From an uncultured Eubacteriales bacterium (lineage in GTDB: Bacteria; Bacillota; Clostridia; Christensenellales; QALW01), in NCBI GenBank assembly GCA_900547955.1, contig URIR01000002.1, positions 26,943-90,942 on the forward strand: DNA of 64,000 bases, read 5' to 3'. Below, piece after piece: positions 2,913 through 53,504 of this stretch. The notes beneath the pieces are model-generated. The model ran no database searches and was not told the DNA's origin. It was given only the letters and a program-made list of their open reading frames with translations. Numbering within the stretch: position 1 is the stretch's first letter; each line of letters opens with the position of its first letter. Made by a program: the position numbers and the translations under genes.

Positions 2913-3585
2913 ATTCTCGCTCCGCCTGAGGCTTTCTTAGATAAAATGCGTCCAATTCAAAGCAGCTTATCAATTCCCCGCGTTCAGCCGCTTCAAAGGC
3001 CAGCTGCGCCGCGGAAGCCGCGCGCTGATACGCCGTTTCAGGATTGGCCAGCCTTATATCCTTCATAAGTCTGCTTAGAGACTCCATATGCATTAACGCG
3101 CCGTCCCCGGTAAATATAACCGTTCGGCCCATCCTCGCTTTATTCAATTCGCATGCCAGCTCTTCTACAGGCAGCGCACACGGCATAATAATCGGAGAGT
3201 TATCCGCATATGCGGCCGCATACACCTGGCCCCGCCGCGCGTCCAGCAAAGAGCATACTACGCTTTGCGGAGAAAATACGCTTCGAGCCGCCGTCTCCAG
3301 CGTATTAACAGCCGCACACGGCTTATTCTCAGCCTGCGCAAGCCCTTTTATTGTACTTACCGCTATACGCACCCCTGTAAACGAACCCGGCCCGGTACAG
3401 CAGGCAAACACGTCTATGCCTGACGGCTCAAGCGAACAATTAAAAAGAGCCTGTTCTATTATGGGCATAAGCATTTCTGAATGCACAAGTCCGTTATTAA
3501 TGCAAATATCGCTTATAATCCTGCCGTCTTTCCATACCGCCGCCGAACAATAGCCGCTGGAGGTATCCGCCGCCAATATAATCAT
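2890..3585 (-). CDS. tsaB: tRNA t6A37 threonylcarbamoyl-transfer complex dimerization subunit TsaB
   Basis: N-terminus MIILAADTSSGYCSAAV (ASKHA/YeaZ type), 231 aa, located between tsaE and rimI. Confidence 0.85.
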   Translation of the reverse strand: MIILAADTSSGYCSAAVWKDGRIISDICINNGLVHSEMLMPIIEQALFNCSLEPSGIDVFACCTGPGSFTGVRIAVSTIKGLAQAENKPCAAVNTLETAARSVFSPQSVVCSLLDARRGQVYAAAYADNSPIIMPCALPVEELACELNKARMGRTVIFTGDGALMHMESLSRLMKDIRLANPETAYQRAASAAQLAFEAAERGELISCFELDAFYLRKPQAEREYESRNKL

Positions 3586-4251: not shown

Positions 4252-6339
4252 TTAACCCAGCTCTACATAACTGGAGCAGGTAACGTATTTACCGCCGTTG
4301 ATATTCGTGGTTATTTCAACGTAATAGCTGTACGCCTCCTCCGGAACACTACCCGTTATAGTATTTCCTGAAATTGTACAGGGAACGGTTTTCCAGGTCT
4401 GGTCCATGGTAGTCGTACTGTTGCCCGGCTTCTGGCTATAAGTCATTTTTTCAGTAATATAATATATTTTAGCAGTAACACCCGACGCGCCGGAGGGCGT
4501 ATTTATCTCTATGGAAACGTCCCGCCCGGCCGGCTCGTTTTTAAGCTGAGTAAGCCCGCCGCCGCCTTTTACAATCCAGTCCGCATAATAATAGCTTATA
4601 GCCTGCACCCAGCCGCTGCTATGGCTGTGATTCATATTATTTATCATAGCCAGCACAGTTTTATCCGTATGCTTTGTATCCAAATAGGATTTACTGTTGG
4701 AATTTATAGAGAAACAGTTATCGCTGTTCCAGCCCATCCAAAGCACGGGGAAATCTATATTATTAAATCTCTCCTGAGCGGACCAAACCGCCATGCTGGC
4801 CTCAGTATTAAAATTGGGGCCCATAAAGGAAAGCGCCTCTTCCAGATAACCGCTGCCGTAAATGGGAATCGCAAAAGCGTAACGGCTGTCATAGCCGATA
4901 GCCAAAGAGGTTATAACTCCGCCCCAGGAAATTCCCGTCACGCCTATTTTTGAGGAATCCACCTTTTCGTCCGCACGCAGAATATTGTGCGCCAAAATAG
5001 TCTGAGCTACTGCATGATACATCCACTGCCGCTCAGCCTGGCTGCCCGCATCCTTCATCCCGCTGTTATTTGGAGCGTTTGTATAACCCTCCTCGTCAAA
5101 ATCTCCTGAAAGTCCATAGGTCCAGTAATTCGCCGGATCTGCTTCCCTGCCGGCAAGGCCCTTGCCCGCCTCTGACGGGAAATAGCCGGTATTATCCATA
5201 GCTATTGCAACATAGCCTCTGTCCGTCCATCGCTTTACCCATTCGGCATAGGCATGGCCCCCGCCTCCATGCAAAAGCACTATAGCCGGCGCTTTATTGG
5301 AGCTGCTCGCGCCCTCCGGATAGCCTATATACGCAAAGACCTTAGTTTTCTGGCCCCCTATTTCCACCCCGTCATAGGTAAGCGCTTTTATGTTAGACCA
5401 AGCATTAGCGCCCGAAGCGCTGCTTTTGGGGTCGTATTCAGGCATATAGGTTACGTTGGGAACAATTTCAAGCATAGCCGAAAGGCCTTCCTCCACCTCT
5501 TTTTTCACTTCTTCAAGCGTGAGCACCTCAGGACCGTTATATTCTCTTTGAACCCCGCTGGCCGAATCAGTAAGACATATATCATCCAAAACATAATATT
5601 CCATTCCTGAAGGAGCGGCTGGACGCATATCAAAATTAAAGCTTTCAGCCTTTGAAATATCATCTATAACCGGATTAGACCAATAGGGCAGCATTTCCTC
5701 CGCTACAGGAAAAGCCACCCATCCAGAAAAGCCTGAGGGAAGCTGAACATGGTCCTGCGCTCCCGTGCCGGCCGAATCGTCTGTCGCCGTTTTTAAAACC
5801 TCTCCGTCGCAGCGGGTAACTATAGCTTTTCCGGCGTTCATTGAGCCTTGTTTTCCATCGCCCGTAAGTATCATGCCAATGCTAAGAGCACCCTCGCCCT
5901 GATTGGATACCCATATGCGAACGTATGCGTATTCATTTGCCTGAGCAAATTCTTCAGGCATAGCGGCAGAGAAATTCTGGCACCAGCAGCCTCCGTTATA
6001 ATCCAGAAGCACCTGAAAGCCCTTGCCCGTATCAGTATTTTTATCCGATATGGCCGTCTCTGAAAGGGGTATATTAAAATTGCTCAGGTCCTGCTGAGCA
6101 AATACATCCGCCTCAGCATTTTCAAAATCAAACAGCATAAGGTCGTCCTCCGATGGTAAAATTGGGCCGGCCGTCTCGGTAGCCTGCGCTTCAGCTGTAG
6201 AAGACGCGGAACTATTTCCCGAAGCGGAAGCGCTGGCCGAGGGCTTAGAAGCGTCCTTGGCGCAGCCCGCGGCAATGGCCATAAGCATGCAAACGCATAA
6301 AATGACCACAAGAACCTTTTTCATTGCACACTCCTCCAA
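4252..6339 (-). CDS. secreted lipoprotein, alpha/beta-hydrolase (carbohydrate-esterase-like) with an N-terminal CBM-like beta-sandwich region
   Basis: The signal peptide has a lipobox (LMAIAAGC) followed by a Ser/Ala-rich linker. The C-terminal half has LLHGGGGHAYAEW and a GISWGG nucleophile elbow. The exact esterase family cannot be assigned by eye. Confidence 0.6.
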   Translation of the reverse strand: MEECAMKKVLVVILCVCMLMAIAAGCAKDASKPSASASASGNSSASSTAEAQATETAGPILPSEDDLMLFDFENAEADVFAQQDLSNFNIPLSETAISDKNTDTGKGFQVLLDYNGGCWCQNFSAAMPEEFAQANEYAYVRIWVSNQGEGALSIGMILTGDGKQGSMNAGKAIVTRCDGEVLKTATDDSAGTGAQDHVQLPSGFSGWVAFPVAEEMLPYWSNPVIDDISKAESFNFDMRPAAPSGMEYYVLDDICLTDSASGVQREYNGPEVLTLEEVKKEVEEGLSAMLEIVPNVTYMPEYDPKSSASGANAWSNIKALTYDGVEIGGQKTKVFAYIGYPEGASSSNKAPAIVLLHGGGGHAYAEWVKRWTDRGYVAIAMDNTGYFPSEAGKGLAGREADPANYWTYGLSGDFDEEGYTNAPNNSGMKDAGSQAERQWMYHAVAQTILAHNILRADEKVDSSKIGVTGISWGGVITSLAIGYDSRYAFAIPIYGSGYLEEALSFMGPNFNTEASMAVWSAQERFNNIDFPVLWMGWNSDNCFSINSNSKSYLDTKHTDKTVLAMINNMNHSHSSGWVQAISYYYADWIVKGGGGLTQLKNEPAGRDVSIEINTPSGASGVTAKIYYITEKMTYSQKPGNSTTTMDQTWKTVPCTISGNTITGSVPEEAYSYYVEITTNINGGKYVTCSSYVELG

Positions 6340-6634
6340 ATCATAATAATATATTTATTAAATCACACACTAGCTTCAAAAAGAATAGACATAACTAACA
6401 ATTTATAGCACGCAATTAACTATAAACTATAACTATAAATTAATATTCCGCATTTAAAAAAGCAGCCTGCCGGAGGCGGCATATAAGCGTTATTAATACA
6501 TAGGGCGGTAATTATTCTGCACTTACGAATTTTGCATAACAAAAAATAAATTTTTATCATTTTCCATCTCGACAAGCGCATAATAAAAATGCTATTATAT
6601 AATAAAAGAATTTATAAGAAACGGAGGCGCTGAT

Positions 6635-10172: not shown

Positions 10173-10190
10173 TAGTTTTAATTACGCCTC

Positions 10191-10372
10191 GGCAGGCGCT
10201 CAGACGCATTCAAGGCGGGGCGGCGCGAAGCCCGGCTTCGCCGGGCCAAGCCTGGGATATGCATATGGGAAAGCAAGCTTTCCCATATGCATATCCCAGG
10301 CTGAATTTTTGCTTCCATTATGGAAGCAAAAATTTCGCGCCGCCCCGCCTTGAATGCGTCTGAGCGCCTGCC
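10191..10372. repeat. GC-rich nested-palindrome element, copy A (39-bp perfect outer stem enclosing three hairpins)
   Basis: 10191-10229 is the exact reverse complement of 10334-10372. The interior holds three hairpins:
- GCCCGGC-TTC-GCCGGGC (10230-10246).
- A 25-bp perfect hairpin (10250-10301).
- AATTTTTGCTTCCA / TGGAAGCAAAAATT (10304-10334). Confidence 0.9.
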
Positions 10373-10503
10373 TGCCATTTGCTATAAAGCATCCGGCAGC
10401 TCCAAAATATATAAAAACAATTATCCCGTTACCTTTTCTTTTGGTCATACTTTGCCCCCTCAAATTATATATTTAAGTAAAAGACCAATAAGAGGGTGAT
10501 TGT

Positions 10504-10793: not shown

Positions 10794-10828
10794 ACGGCTC
10801 AGGCTATAAGCCTGAGCCGTAAAATTTA
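10794..10828. terminator. bidirectional terminator between spoIIID and rnpB
   Basis: An 11-bp hairpin (ACGGCTCAGGC-TATAA-GCCTGAGCCGT) has T-rich tracts on both strands. Confidence 0.7.
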
Positions 10829-10835
10829 TATAAAA

Positions 10836-11166
10836 TTGAGACGGGCCTGTAAGCCGAGTTCTGTCGTGAATGACCATCTATCTATTCCCGCCGTTGCCGA
10901 ACGGGCTTAAGCGATTACCTGGAAGCCGGCGGACAACCGTTAATGCTTCGCTATCAATCTTGCTCCGGATGGGGTTTACAGGGCCTGCAAGTCGCCAAGC
11001 AGCCGGTGAGCTCTTACCTCGCCTTTCCACCCTTACCTGCAAAGGCAGGCGGTATATCTCTGTTGCACTCTCCTTGGAGTCGCCTCCACCGGATGTTATC
11101 CGGCATCCTGTCCTGCGGAGCTCGGACTTTCCTCGTATTTTCACCGCGGTCATTCGGCCCGCTCAA
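10836..11166 (-). ncRNA. rnpB: RNase P RNA (bacterial type)
   Basis: On the minus strand it contains CGAGGAAAGTCCGAGCTCCGCAGG (the P4 5' strand) near 11120-11142. It also contains TAGATGGTCATTCACGACAGAACTCGGCTTACAGG (the P4 3' strand / conserved 3' region) near 10848-10880. The termini TTGAGCGGGCC and GGCCCGTCTCAA can form P1. The ends are approximate. Confidence 0.9.
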
Positions 11167-22190: not shown

Positions 22191-22686
22191 GGCAGACAAA
22201 ATCAAAAAAATTAAATTTTTTTATTTCAGCATCTTGAAATCATGTCTAAAATATATTATTATATTAACGGCGTCTCCCACCCGGCAGCGGCAGGCGCAGC
22301 ATGTTCAAAATTTAATTGCCGGGAAACGGAGGCAATATGACTGAAAATACTCCGCCCAATCATATTTAATACCCTAAATTGATAAGGGGATACACGCCTC
22401 CAGCGGTCTGATTTCGGCATTTTCTGCGTCATCGTCAATGGGTGTGCGTTCAGTACGCCTCATTCTGCTTCCTTGAAAATGCCGAAATCAAACCTGCCGG
22501 AGGTCGAAGAGTCAGGCAGCGGCCGTTTGTGTAGCCTGCAAAGCGCTCGAACGACGTGTACCGGACGCACACGGAGCGAAAAGCAACACAGCAGGACACT
22601 CAAACAGCCCTGTCCTGACCGTATATGCCCTTGTCAATTTAGGGGAGGCATGTTCTCTTAAAATAAAATATGAAAGGGGCTTTATT

Positions 22687-24783: not shown

Positions 24784-24836
24784 AAAACCGCGGATATAAA
24801 AATTCTGAGAATTTTTATATCCGCGGTTTTATTTTG
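24784..24836 (+). terminator. rho-independent terminator of the EF-G2 gene
   Basis: A 22-bp perfect hairpin (AAAACCGCGGATATAAAAATTC-TGA-GAATTTTTATATCCGCGGTTTT) is followed by ATTTTG. Confidence 0.8.
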
Positions 24837-24847
24837 CCTTTGATAAA

Positions 24848-24969
24848 AAAACAGCCCCGGGACAATACGCCGGCGTTTGCGGCCTGAAAGGCCGCAGGCC
24901 GGGCTTCGCCCGGCCCAGGCAGGCGCTTTGCGCCTGCCAAACGCCGGCGTATTGTCCCGGGGCTGTTTT
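24848..24969. repeat. GC-rich nested-palindrome element, copy B (31-bp perfect outer stem, three short GC hairpins)
   Basis: 24848-24878 is the exact reverse complement of 24939-24969. The interior hairpins are GCGGCC-TGAAA-GGCCGC, GGCCGGGC-TTC-GCCCGGCC and GGCAGGCGC-TTT-GCGCCTGCC. Confidence 0.9.
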
Positions 24970-24985
24970 ATTTAAAAAGCTTTAA

Positions 24986-31168: not shown

Positions 31169-31348
31169 TTTACAGCTCCTTTAAAAAATAATAAGCAGCT
31201 TTTTACTACTCTTTAAAAGCCACAACAAACATATTAACACAATTCCTTAAATTTCACAATTAATTTATACTGAGATGCAGGCAGTAAAAACAATATTTTA
31301 AGAAATTACGATTAAAAACAAGCAGCGCGTATGCCTGGAAGAATATTT

Positions 31349-31531
31349 TTATTATCCCGCGCATAAAGGAGCCAGGGGGGCGGCGCGGAATTTTTGCGCC
31401 CTTTCAGGGCGCAAAAATAGAGCGCAGCCAATATGCCGCGAAAGCTTGCTTTCTCGGTATATTGGCTGCGCTGGGCCAGGCTTCGCCTGGCTCCGCGCCG
31501 CCCCCTGGCTCCTTTATGCGCGGGATAATAA
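31349..31531. repeat. GC-rich nested-palindrome element, copy C (~41-bp outer stem with one bulge, three hairpins)
   Basis: 31349-31389 pairs with 31492-31531, with 6 G opposite 5 C. The interior hairpins are:
- ATTTTTGCGCCCT-TTC-AGGGCGCAAAAAT.
- A ~23-bp hairpin (31421-31472, 2 mismatches).
- GCCAGGC-TTC-GCCTGGC.
The module order is the mirror image of copy A. Confidence 0.9.
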
Positions 31532-31644
31532 AGAGCCGCTTCGTGGTAAAAAAAACGGCCGTCCCAAAAGAGGACATACGGATAGCAGACATGGACATAA
31601 CGCGCGGACGGTCATGCCTCTTTTTTCACCCCTATAAAAAGTAT

Positions 31645-35900: not shown

Positions 35901-36115
35901 AGCGTTCGGACAAGTTAAATTTTAAGGCATACGATAAAAAAGGCCCGCGCCGGCGCCGACGCTATATAATAAGCAAAAGTTCTTACCGTTACCTAGAAGA
36001 ATAAATGTTCTTCTAGGTAAGGCCGACACAATATATTCAGAATAAACGCCATACATATTATCGACAAATAATTTTTGAAAAACAATTGAATGTACCCGGC
36101 GTCAAAAAATTTACG

Positions 36116-36856: not shown

Positions 36857-36989
36857 TTTCAGCGCAGAAAAAGCCCCAGGGGGGCGGCGTTGGGCAGGCT
36901 TATTAAGCCTGCCTGGGCCGGGCCTAAGGCCCGGCCCGCGGCCGAAGGCCGCGCAACGCCGCCCCCCTGGGGCTTTTTCTGCGCTGAAA
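36857..36989. repeat. GC-rich nested-palindrome element, copy D (36-bp perfect outer stem, three short GC hairpins)
   Basis: 36857-36892 is the exact reverse complement of 36954-36989. The interior hairpins are GGCAGGCTT-ATT-AAGCCTGCC, GGGCCGGGCC-TAA-GGCCCGGCCC and GCGGCC-GAA-GGCCGC. These are the same three modules as copy B, in reversed order. Confidence 0.9.
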
Positions 36990-44390: not shown

Positions 44391-44625
44391 CTAATAAAAA
44401 TAAAACCGTCCTTTACAAAAAGGACGGCTGAACCGCGGTACCACCTTAATTCCGCACGCATAAAGCGCGCGGCGCTCATTACGCTTTAACGGGCGCACCC
44501 GTGCAGAGCTACTTTAAAACACTTTCACCCTGCGCGCTCCAAAGCGACCTTCAGCTTGTTTCCCCGCGCCCTTTCACCGCTACGAGCGCTCTCTTAAGGC
44601 AGAAACACAGCCTACTCCTCTTTTT
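44391..44625 (-). promoter_or_regulatory. T-box riboswitch leader of valS with terminator/antiterminator
   Basis: On the minus strand it has the T-box sequence GGTGGTACCGCG (44433-44444). This is followed by the terminator hairpin AGCCGTCC...GGACGGTT plus a T run (44391-44428). Upstream stem I elements include AGAGAG and GGTGAAAG. A GUC (Val) triplet lies in GAAGGUCGC (near 44538-44546) as a candidate specifier. Confidence 0.85.
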
Positions 44626-44638
44626 CACAGCGATATAT

Positions 44639-53458: not shown

Positions 53459-53504
53459 AAAAAGCAGCCTGCCGTCCATTAATCTGCGGCAGGCTGCTTT
53501 TTTT
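53459..53504. terminator. bidirectional intrinsic terminator between cdaR and the convergent surface-protein gene
   Basis: A run of A, then the 11-bp hairpin GCAGCCTGCCG ... CGGCAGGCTGC, then a run of T. Confidence 0.8.

Follow-up and report, generated by a model that had tools for sequence, protein, structure and literature searches.

A nested-palindrome repeat family with an invertible three-hairpin core in an uncultured clade of gut Clostridia

Background

The inverted terminal repeats (ITRs) of adeno-associated virus (AAV, a parvovirus) consist of a long outer stem around small palindromes, whose order occurs in two inverted configurations, flip and flop; they are T-shaped with two inner palindromes, form the ends of a linear single-stranded DNA genome, and flip by hairpin-primed replication and Rep nicking. 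Among bacterial repeats, repetitive extragenic palindromic sequences (REPs) each consist of one imperfect hairpin of 20–40 bp that carries an unpaired tag, GTAG or CGTC, at one end; RAYT transposases are associated with the GTAG type (PMC3733652). The pneumococcal repeats BOX, RUP and SPRITE, the last of them terminator-like, transpose slowly, are judged to be mostly parasitic and are able to affect co-transcribed genes (PMC3049150). Template switching between the arms of an inverted repeat homogenises the arms, inverts the spacer and expands the repeat, and it also yields loop inversions and one-step compensatory changes (PMC8604942, PMC13100816, PMC8794818). Here we describe nested palindromes in a 64,000-nt stretch of DNA (the window; contig URIR01000002.1) from an uncultured Eubacteriales bacterium, starting from one copy, copy B (24848–24969), that had been noticed in an initial annotation made from the sequence alone. 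The elements are probably clade-restricted DNA repeats, in which the tip of a perfect, locus-specific stem carries a core that alternates between flip and flop states, and the stems are maintained at the DNA level.

Results

Copy B and three further nested palindromes in the window

Copy B is 122 nt long. Its left and right arms are exact reverse complements and form an outer stem of 31 bp, which the pair G24879/C24938 brings to 32 bp, around three GC-rich mini-hairpins (Table 1). The predicted RNA fold was a four-way junction with a minimum free energy of −113.4 kcal/mol, compared with −55.6 ± 4.0 kcal/mol for 200 shuffled sequences (z = −14.6), none of which was as good as the real one; the same structure was predicted with DNA parameters (−75.4 kcal/mol, z = −16.5). 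The palindrome, stem and hairpins that had been annotated were thus all recovered, and an imperfect palindrome reached further out, to 24838–24979 (42-nt arms, 90% complementary). The innermost ~12 nt of the left arm (CGCCGGCGTTTG) are the conserved closing repeat of the family, and the remainder is locus-specific; the closing motif GGCGTTTG showed no variation in 37 aligned copies. A different sample (L002), whose EF-G2 protein was identical, had GGTAA as the loop of mini-hairpin 1. Compensated variants were found among copies in both of the other hairpins: GGGC/GCCC, GAGC/GCTC, GAAC/GTTC and GCGC/GCGC in mini-hairpin 2 and, e.g., GGCGGGC/GCCCGCC and GACGGGC/GCCCGTC in mini-hairpin 3.

An inverted-repeat scan of the window detected four nested palindromes (A, B, C and D), and a covariance-model scan with filters off detected no copies beyond these. 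Each folded into a long near-perfect outer stem with three inner hairpins (z −15 to −21, copies A, C and D included). Copy D carries the three modules of B in reverse order, and its reverse complement aligned colinearly with B, so that the annotated homology of the two held; read on the reverse complement, the D loops are TTC, TTA and AAT. Copy A was colinear with the reverse complement of copy C. The window thus contains a short subtype (B and D) and a long subtype (A and C, with a 25–26-bp central hairpin). The G-rich closing repeat (GGGGCGGCG...) is common to both, and the terminal inverted repeat of the long subtype is GGGGCGGCGCGRA. Orthologues of copy A were present in two other species. 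Open reading frames (ORFs) of 66–145 aa without a Pfam match run through several palindromes (window 10178–10378 and 10200–10463 (− strand), L026 962–1399 and L020 1197–1445); such palindrome-spanning ORFs, called as genes in public assemblies, are almost certainly spurious.

A conserved core within a local outer stem

The conserved unit was a core of ~85 nt, comprising GGGG.CGGCGTTTG, three GC-rich mini-hairpins and CAAACGCCG.CCCC, and the nested element units measured 85–185 nt. In the alignment of 37 copies the closing repeat GGCGTT(T)G / CAAACGCC was invariant, the preceding G-rich run was usually conserved, and so were all three mini-hairpins. Hairpins 2 and 3, which the search pattern had left largely unconstrained, showed many fully compensated variants, in line with the initial description of conserved or co-varying stems with variable loops. 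Past the closing repeat, the outer stem was different at each locus (11–45 bp, median 27, with 0–2 mismatches), and in 14 of 52 copies the palindrome resumed past a bulge. Orthologous elements flank an RsmE/MiaB-like gene pair on either side in two carrier genomes, CIM:MAG 469 and N. gallicola (see below); their cores were about 93% identical and in equal orientation and their outer stems were unrelated, indicating that the core is the conserved unit and the outer stem local sequence. An apparent “arm swap” between the outer stems of L062 and L079 was rejected as a chance GC-rich 7-mer, inversion being unable to exchange the arms of a palindrome.

Both orientations of the inner block occur at single loci

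At locus C, the element was read through in 11 independent contigs of 60–100 kb; the inner block was in one orientation in four of them (window included) and in the opposite orientation in seven, with 101–102 of 102 positions identical once inverted. Two asymmetric mismatches of the central hairpin travelled with the inner block, indicating that the whole block had been inverted. Its orientation was associated with a flanking single-nucleotide polymorphism (SNP; Fisher p = 0.024) and with an inner SNP, indicating a heritable state and not assembler noise. An assembly artefact was rejected on the length of the contigs, the variety of assemblers, a k greater than the arm length, the reading through of both flanks and the SNP correlation.

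At locus B, contig L003 contained the EF-G2-side flank and the left arm, then the reverse complement of the inner block (43/43), and then ended. A metagenome scan with the locus-specific arm of B yielded one extra contig, which ended inside the element in the window orientation and added no support for the flip. Six of eight assemblies of this locus broke or were gapped within the element, as would be expected if orientations were mixed within samples or if the hairpin sequenced poorly. Contigs or scaffolds ending or N-gapped inside elements were L001, L003–L006 and L102 (locus B) and L030, L046, L047, L064, L066 and L079.

Smaller units flipped too. Between strains, the central loop occurred as AA or TT and the loops of hairpin 1 as AAA or TTT, and the loop of a plain hairpin was TTTT or AAAA in different strains of one species. 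Invertible segments measured 58–102 bp. One series caught a change in the arms: L015 was changed in one arm only, and L010 carried the matching change in both. The element thus behaves as a DNA palindrome and not as an RNA gene: the inner block and the loops invert, and a change in one arm is copied to the other. B and D, whose modules the initial annotation had noted to be in opposite order, are thus in different flip/flop states; the order is switchable and not a stable trait of a copy, since both orientations of the inner block were found at one locus in different samples.

Strictly Watson–Crick, strand-symmetric covariation

The larger census and covariation analysis gave a very strong signal. 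In the 37-copy alignment 98% of 1,404 cells were paired, and 206 double-sided changes were observed, compared with 51 ± 6 after shuffling (none of 500 shuffles reached 206) and at most 62 when the partners were slid by 1–3 columns; the covariation score was 0.389 versus 0.084. Among 2,761 predicted pairs of 55 elements, 99.6% were Watson–Crick and 0.36% were G.U, and in the 37-copy alignment G.U was no more frequent than A.C mismatches. Loops of 3 nt, the steric minimum, made up 76% of all loops, and complementary loops were both common (TTC 28 and GAA 18; TTT 14 and AAA 11; GCA 13 and TGC 7). Relative to a single upstream transcript, the orientation of the core was random (11:14, p = 0.69).

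Plain palindromes were also abundant. In 285 kb of the same genomes there were 85 plain perfect hairpins with stems of at least 10 bp, of which 19 had stems of at least 20 bp (the longest 43 bp), and 12 plain perfect palindromes had no spacer at all, a form that brings an RNA hairpin no advantage. The window contained six plain hairpins with stems of at least 12 bp, versus about 0.2 expected; long ones are the hairpin of the EF-G2 terminator (Table 1) and those at 10794–10820, 35989–36020 and 53459–53502 (12–16 bp). Plain hairpins and locus-specific outer stems agreed in their GC contents (0.65 versus 0.60) and in how often T-tracts accompanied them (42% versus 40%, p = 0.86). The long plain perfect hairpins suggest clade-wide generation or tolerance of palindromes.

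The rarity of G.U, the random orientation, the symmetry of the loops and the plain palindromes fit a strand-symmetric DNA process, and the perfect co-varying stems point to maintenance of palindromes at the DNA level rather than to selection on RNA. The covariation cannot be taken as a sign of a selected RNA, because G.U was as rare as A.C, orientation was random, and homogenisation of DNA arms predicts the same pattern.

A family restricted to a narrow clade

Reference genomes (one per species, 185,579 species) were scanned with an exact pattern that ran from the closing repeat through hairpin 1 into the beginning of hairpin 2. Of the 59 loci found, about 42 lay in two genomes: about 23 in Candidatus Neochristensenella gallicola, a chicken-gut metagenome-assembled genome (MAG) classified as Clostridia incertae sedis, and about 19 in a MAG from the human gut that bears the label “Selenomonadales bacterium CIM:MAG 469”. 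The others were single matches in GC-rich genomes, without an enclosing stem and consistent with chance. A covariance model built from the 37 copies matched about 70 places in 347 kb of the carrier lineages, including about 30 missed by the exact pattern, frequent tandem pairs and weak matches to the long subtype, and an independent nested-palindrome finder returned 53 elements in 314 kb. The shared architecture is therefore found elsewhere, both in copies A, C and D and in related genomes.

Family members were present in sister lineages with about 91% identical EF-G2 and absent from samples of 5–22 kb from more distant Christensenellales, at the 86%, 71%, 68% and 59% tiers (the last being Christensenella sp.), which contained ordinary short terminators only. 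Proteins identical to those of the window, which also encodes spoIIID, were found on human-gut metagenome contigs. A plasmid collection (searched by blastn) and a viral-contig collection (searched with the pattern) gave zero matches to the family. With Rfam at the gathering score, only an RNase P RNA and a T-box leader reached threshold in the whole window. At a permissive E-value no family was assigned to locus B; the matches were miRNA-hairpin models at chance level on both strands, the best of them mir-1253 with 38.7 bits against a gathering score of 103. No described family of such repeats was found in the literature on Christensenellaceae repeats, Clostridia MITEs (miniature transposable elements with inverted repeats), hairpin invertons and nested palindromes. 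These nested palindromes are an undescribed, high-copy, intergenic repeat family limited to a narrow clade of gut Clostridia.

Turnover and dispersal

When orthologous spacers were compared, sister lineages showed different types, different outer stems or no element. Downstream of EF-G2, each of three sister lineages carried a short-type element; these differed in position, outer stem and closing sequence as well as in the plain hairpins beside them; upstream of EF-G2, the same lineages had a short-type copy with a stem of only 11 bp, a long-type copy, or none. After the citrate synthase gene, all three species carried a long-type copy. Nothing followed it in the window; in the other two it was followed by a plain hairpin of 29 bp or by a short-type element, whose stem was homologous to that plain hairpin over its outer 21 bp. 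This comparison was the closest approach found to a pair of empty and filled sites. A presence/absence polymorphism in L092 (spacers of 108 versus 211 nt) was explained by a stretch of N within a scaffold rather than by a true empty site.

Elements also nest: in L069, a complete short-type element occupies the position of the third hairpin in a long-type frame. This composite (~190 nt) occurs as a direct repeat at 2990–3180 and 4430–4630 of L069, on both sides of a gene for a secreted- or membrane-protein-like product. The flanks of the elements are inverted and not direct repeats; in 52 copies there was no flanking direct repeat of at least 4 nt, and counts for k = 2 and 3 were at or below chance. 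Genes bracketed by pairs of elements were housekeeping genes. The core is clearly dispersed, with insertion at hairpin apices or outward growth of the palindrome from the core as possible routes.

An AT-rich island in L032 (5323–7139) lies between two short-type copies that are nearly identical; it contains small RHH-like ORFs and a serine recombinase remnant retaining only Zn_ribbon_recom, and is probably a degraded mobile element. Its recombinase-like ORF (5970–6599) was rejected as a mobiliser, being a mere C-terminal remnant of a large serine recombinase. Relative to the sister lineages L089 and L093, the EF-G2 leader region also carries an insertion of ~273 nt (22372–22644), an element with inverted repeats of 17 nt (CCCTAAATTGAYAAGGG) as its termini. 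It was fixed in all contigs of the window species, the same ends occurred in N. gallicola (L041, L056, L061 and L069), and it is a second, unrelated MITE-like family of the clade. A short conserved sequence with ATGACTGAAAA(T/C)ACTCCGCCC (22330–22370, with orthologues in L089 and L093) is located 5′ of EF-G2 in all three lineages; it could act as a regulatory leader or code for a leader peptide.

Gene context and transcription termination

The elements were intergenic; of their spacers, 18 were tandem, 11 convergent and 2 divergent. The convergent class was enriched (11/31 versus 29/203; odds ratio 3.3, p = 0.008), and depletion from divergent spacers was not significant (p = 0.54). T-tracts flanked 25–33% of stem ends, compared with 11% at random positions, and were absent on both sides in 31 of 52 copies.

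Copy B is located, as annotated, past the EF-G2 terminator between two convergent genes, 94 nt past the stop of EF-G2 and 16 nt past that of the sortase-SH3 gene; a polyprenyl synthase gene is also nearby. The T-run TTTTATTT on the + strand is mirrored by an A-run (24844–24851) that gives a run of seven T (TTTTTTT) on the − strand 3′ of the sortase gene, so that copy B has the GC-rich hairpin and U-tract of an intrinsic terminator, and it is the only hairpin 3′ of the sortase gene. Judged from these signals, copy B most likely ends the transcript of the sortase-SH3 gene and serves as a backup to the EF-G2 terminator. The suggested bidirectional terminator is thus plausible for B, and the frequent lack of T-tracts shows that it is not a trait of the family. 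Copy D also lies between convergent genes with A/T-runs on both sides. Copy A (between citrate synthase and spoIIID) and copy C (between a GNAT acetyltransferase gene and nusB) have no T-runs. No promoter-like site was found within 24848–24969, and no recombinase gene was found within about 3 kb of copy B or adjoining A, C or D.

The window also contains a bacterial RNase P class A RNA (10833–11165, − strand, 261.6 bits) and a T-box leader (44417–44637, − strand, 133.3 bits), both of which are ordinary annotation.

Table 1. Coordinates of the nested palindromes and of associated features in the window
Feature	Position	Strand	Remarks
Copy A, long (A/C) subtype	10191–10372		Closing repeat GGGGCGGCGCGAA, short GC hairpin, 26-bp central hairpin, AT-started hairpin
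EF-G2 terminator	24784–24830	+	Plain perfect hairpin (23-bp stem, 1-nt loop), then T-tract; separate from copy B
Copy B, left arm of outer stem	24848–24878		Exact reverse complement of 24939–24969
Copy B, invertible inner block, 60 nt	24879–24938		Exact reverse complement between the same arms in L003
Copy B, mini-hairpin 1, GCGGCC-TGAAA-GGCCGC	24879–24895		Sequence and fold
Copy B, mini-hairpin 2, GGCCGGGC-TTC-GCCCGGCC	24897–24915		Sequence and fold
Copy B, mini-hairpin 3, GGCAGGCGC-TTT-GCGCCTGCC	24918–24938		Sequence and fold
Copy B, right arm of outer stem	24939–24969		Pairs with 24848–24878
T-run (TTTTATTT) 3′ of copy B stem	24966–24976	+	Read from sequence; putative terminator role
Copy C, long subtype, 102-nt inner block	31348–31532		Both orientations among 11 fully assembled contigs
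Copy D, short (B/D) subtype, inner block in the state opposite to B	36857–36989		Covariance-model score 85.7 bits on − strand

Discussion

In the reading that we prefer, of repeats that persist and change as DNA palindromes, template switching during replication or recombination between the arms would produce both the inversions and the matched arms; sequence cannot separate template switching from RecA-type or enzyme-mediated recombination. Such an arm-level mechanism would hold every stem in Watson–Crick register and thereby create apparent covariation without RNA selection. The core would sit in, or seed, the long perfect hairpins of which these genomes hold unusually many. Its spread may have followed a transposase-like or recombinational route, with no target-site duplication left behind. 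Copies would build up at the 3′ ends of genes, where they are tolerated, and transcribed copies would form a very stable 3′ structure.

Several observations weigh against this reading. The core is conserved across species beyond its surroundings, for which purely neutral palindrome dynamics gives no explanation; the conservation could reflect purifying selection, e.g. on a protein-binding site or a functional RNA shape. At locus B, the flipped state is represented by one truncated contig (L003). An exact pair of empty and filled sites was not recovered, so that mobility of the core is read from its distribution only, and no mobilising enzyme was seen in the ~0.5 Mb (about 506 kb) examined. A different account, possible but doubtful in our judgement, treats the three-hairpin core as small mobile DNA of a new kind, integrating at hairpin apices or creating inverted target duplications, or else holds that the clade has lost its palindrome surveillance. 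The mobile core would pass through a folded single-strand or cruciform intermediate, with neither target-site duplication nor a recognised transposase, and flip/flop would arise as a side effect, much as it does in the terminal repeats of parvoviruses. Loss of surveillance, e.g. of SbcCD-type cleavage, would let template switching drive runaway growth of perfect palindromes genome-wide.

The elements might instead be dedicated bidirectional intrinsic terminators or insulators, with a branched hairpin and U-tracts and with stems kept by selection for termination. The setting of B and D between convergent genes with A/T-runs on both sides, the enrichment in convergent spacers and the excess of T-tracts over random positions all argue in that direction, as does the described role of very long-stem terminators in resisting antitermination (PMC10325885). 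However, most copies lack a T-tract on either side, among them A and C, which lie 5′ of spoIIID and nusB, and EF-G2 has its own strong terminator directly 5′ of B. Termination needs neither three conserved inner hairpins nor a conserved closing repeat nor perfect stems of 30–45 bp, and it leaves the near absence of G.U and the zero-spacer palindromes unexplained, which makes this account rather unlikely. A structured non-coding or cis-regulatory RNA with a four-way junction, in which covariation records selection on RNA folding, would account for the very strong covariation with its 98% pairing, for the extremely stable fold and for the conservation of three inner hairpin sequences across species. 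It is nevertheless very unlikely: both orientations of the inner block occur at one locus, orientation is random with respect to transcription, G.U is no commoner than A.C, and most loops are at the 3-nt minimum, vary, and flip to their complement. Nor would it be expected of such an RNA that the outer stem ranges from 11 to 45 bp, that tens to hundreds of copies lie beside unrelated housekeeping genes, or that no Rfam family is reached at the gathering score and the miRNA-hairpin matches are at chance level.

A classical non-autonomous transposon (a MITE, or a derivative of IS200/IS605) moved in trans, with the palindromic features as its ends, is suggested by the conserved terminal inverted repeat of ~11–15 nt with a conserved interior, by the dispersed, clade-restricted, high-copy distribution, by differences in presence, absence and type at orthologous spacers, and by the nesting and the duplicated composite. 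Of the features that define MITEs, the conserved terminal inverted repeats are present and the target-site duplication is absent, a lack that would fit single-strand transposition of the HUH/Y1 type. Against a transposon of this kind, no IS200/RAYT-type transposase gave a significant tblastn match in 506 kb with an IS200 TnpA query, no parent insertion sequence with the same ends was seen in about 0.5 Mb, and the embedding of each copy in a long perfect locus-specific palindrome is left unexplained. Orthologous copies persist across species, so current mobility must be low. On balance, we regard the transposon as unlikely. Extremely unlikely, in our view, is an enzyme-driven inverton or phase-variation switch, in which a site-specific recombinase acts on the closing repeats and alters the expression of neighbouring genes. 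Conserved inverted repeats do flank an invertible segment, and both orientations do occur in natural populations. That segment, however, measures merely 58–102 bp and consists entirely of hairpins, it has no promoter-like site and no recombinase gene close by, and the neighbouring genes are housekeeping genes. Site-specific invertases need far longer DNA between their sites for synapsis, and small loops on stems of 7–26 bp flip as well, which no site-specific system would explain.

The family is a natural counter-example for RNA discovery: covariation of riboswitch strength arises here in a flipping DNA palindrome, and covariation alone is no sign of RNA-level selection where pairs are strictly Watson–Crick and strand-symmetric. 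The family is abundant, has not been described before and belongs to an uncultured clade of gut Clostridia related to Ca. Neochristensenella. Its unusual anatomy, with an apical core, nesting and no target-site duplication, may point to a novel route of dispersal, and the nested inversions of spacers and loops offer a natural system for measuring template switching or intra-palindrome recombination in bacteria. In practice, the elements fragment short-read assemblies, with many MAG contigs ending in a copy, and create spurious ORFs.

Among known systems, the AAV ITRs offer an analogy only: the elements described here lie in the chromosome, contain three inner hairpins each and gave no match in the viral collection. 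Invertons of the PhaseFinder type likewise have inverted repeats around a segment found in both orientations in gut metagenomes (PMC10028968, PMC11892184), whereas the present segment is short, lacks a promoter, coding sequence or adjacent invertase, and occurs in tens to hundreds of copies by housekeeping genes. Template-switch (quasipalindrome) mutagenesis shares arm homogenisation, one-step compensatory changes, inversion of spacers and loops, and repeat extension (PMC8604942, PMC13100816, PMC8794818). It is, however, a mutational mechanism and not an element family, whose descriptions mostly concern short inverted repeats of yeast, E. coli and RNA genes, and a dispersed family with nested levels that all flip is not among its described cases.

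Closest in kind are the interspersed repeats of other bacteria. BOX, RUP and SPRITE are also Firmicute repeats with modular hairpins, confined to one species group and inserting into one another (PMC3049150), but they have no sequence relationship to the present family; BOX is a linear A-B(n)-C array and not a four-way junction, and no locus-specific perfect outer stem or flip/flop is reported for the pneumococcal repeats. REPs, bacterial interspersed mosaic elements (BIMEs) and REPINs are likewise high-copy, GC-rich, lineage-restricted intergenic palindromes, located mostly 3′ of genes between convergent or co-directional ORFs; they are often clustered in mosaics, and stabilisation of transcript 3′ ends and termination have been proposed as REP roles (PMC3733652). 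Here, in contrast, a three-hairpin core of ~85 nt forms the unit, set in a locus-specific stem that is long and perfect. The host belongs to a lineage of Clostridia, GTAG and CGTC tags were each found at the termini of one of 55 elements, and no RAYT was seen in about 0.5 Mb. The element is probably best described within the REP/BIME/MITE/BOX kind of intergenic palindromic repeat; what sets it apart is a core of three hairpins at the tip of a perfect, locus-specific stem, flip/flop at several levels, and maintenance of perfect stems at the DNA level.

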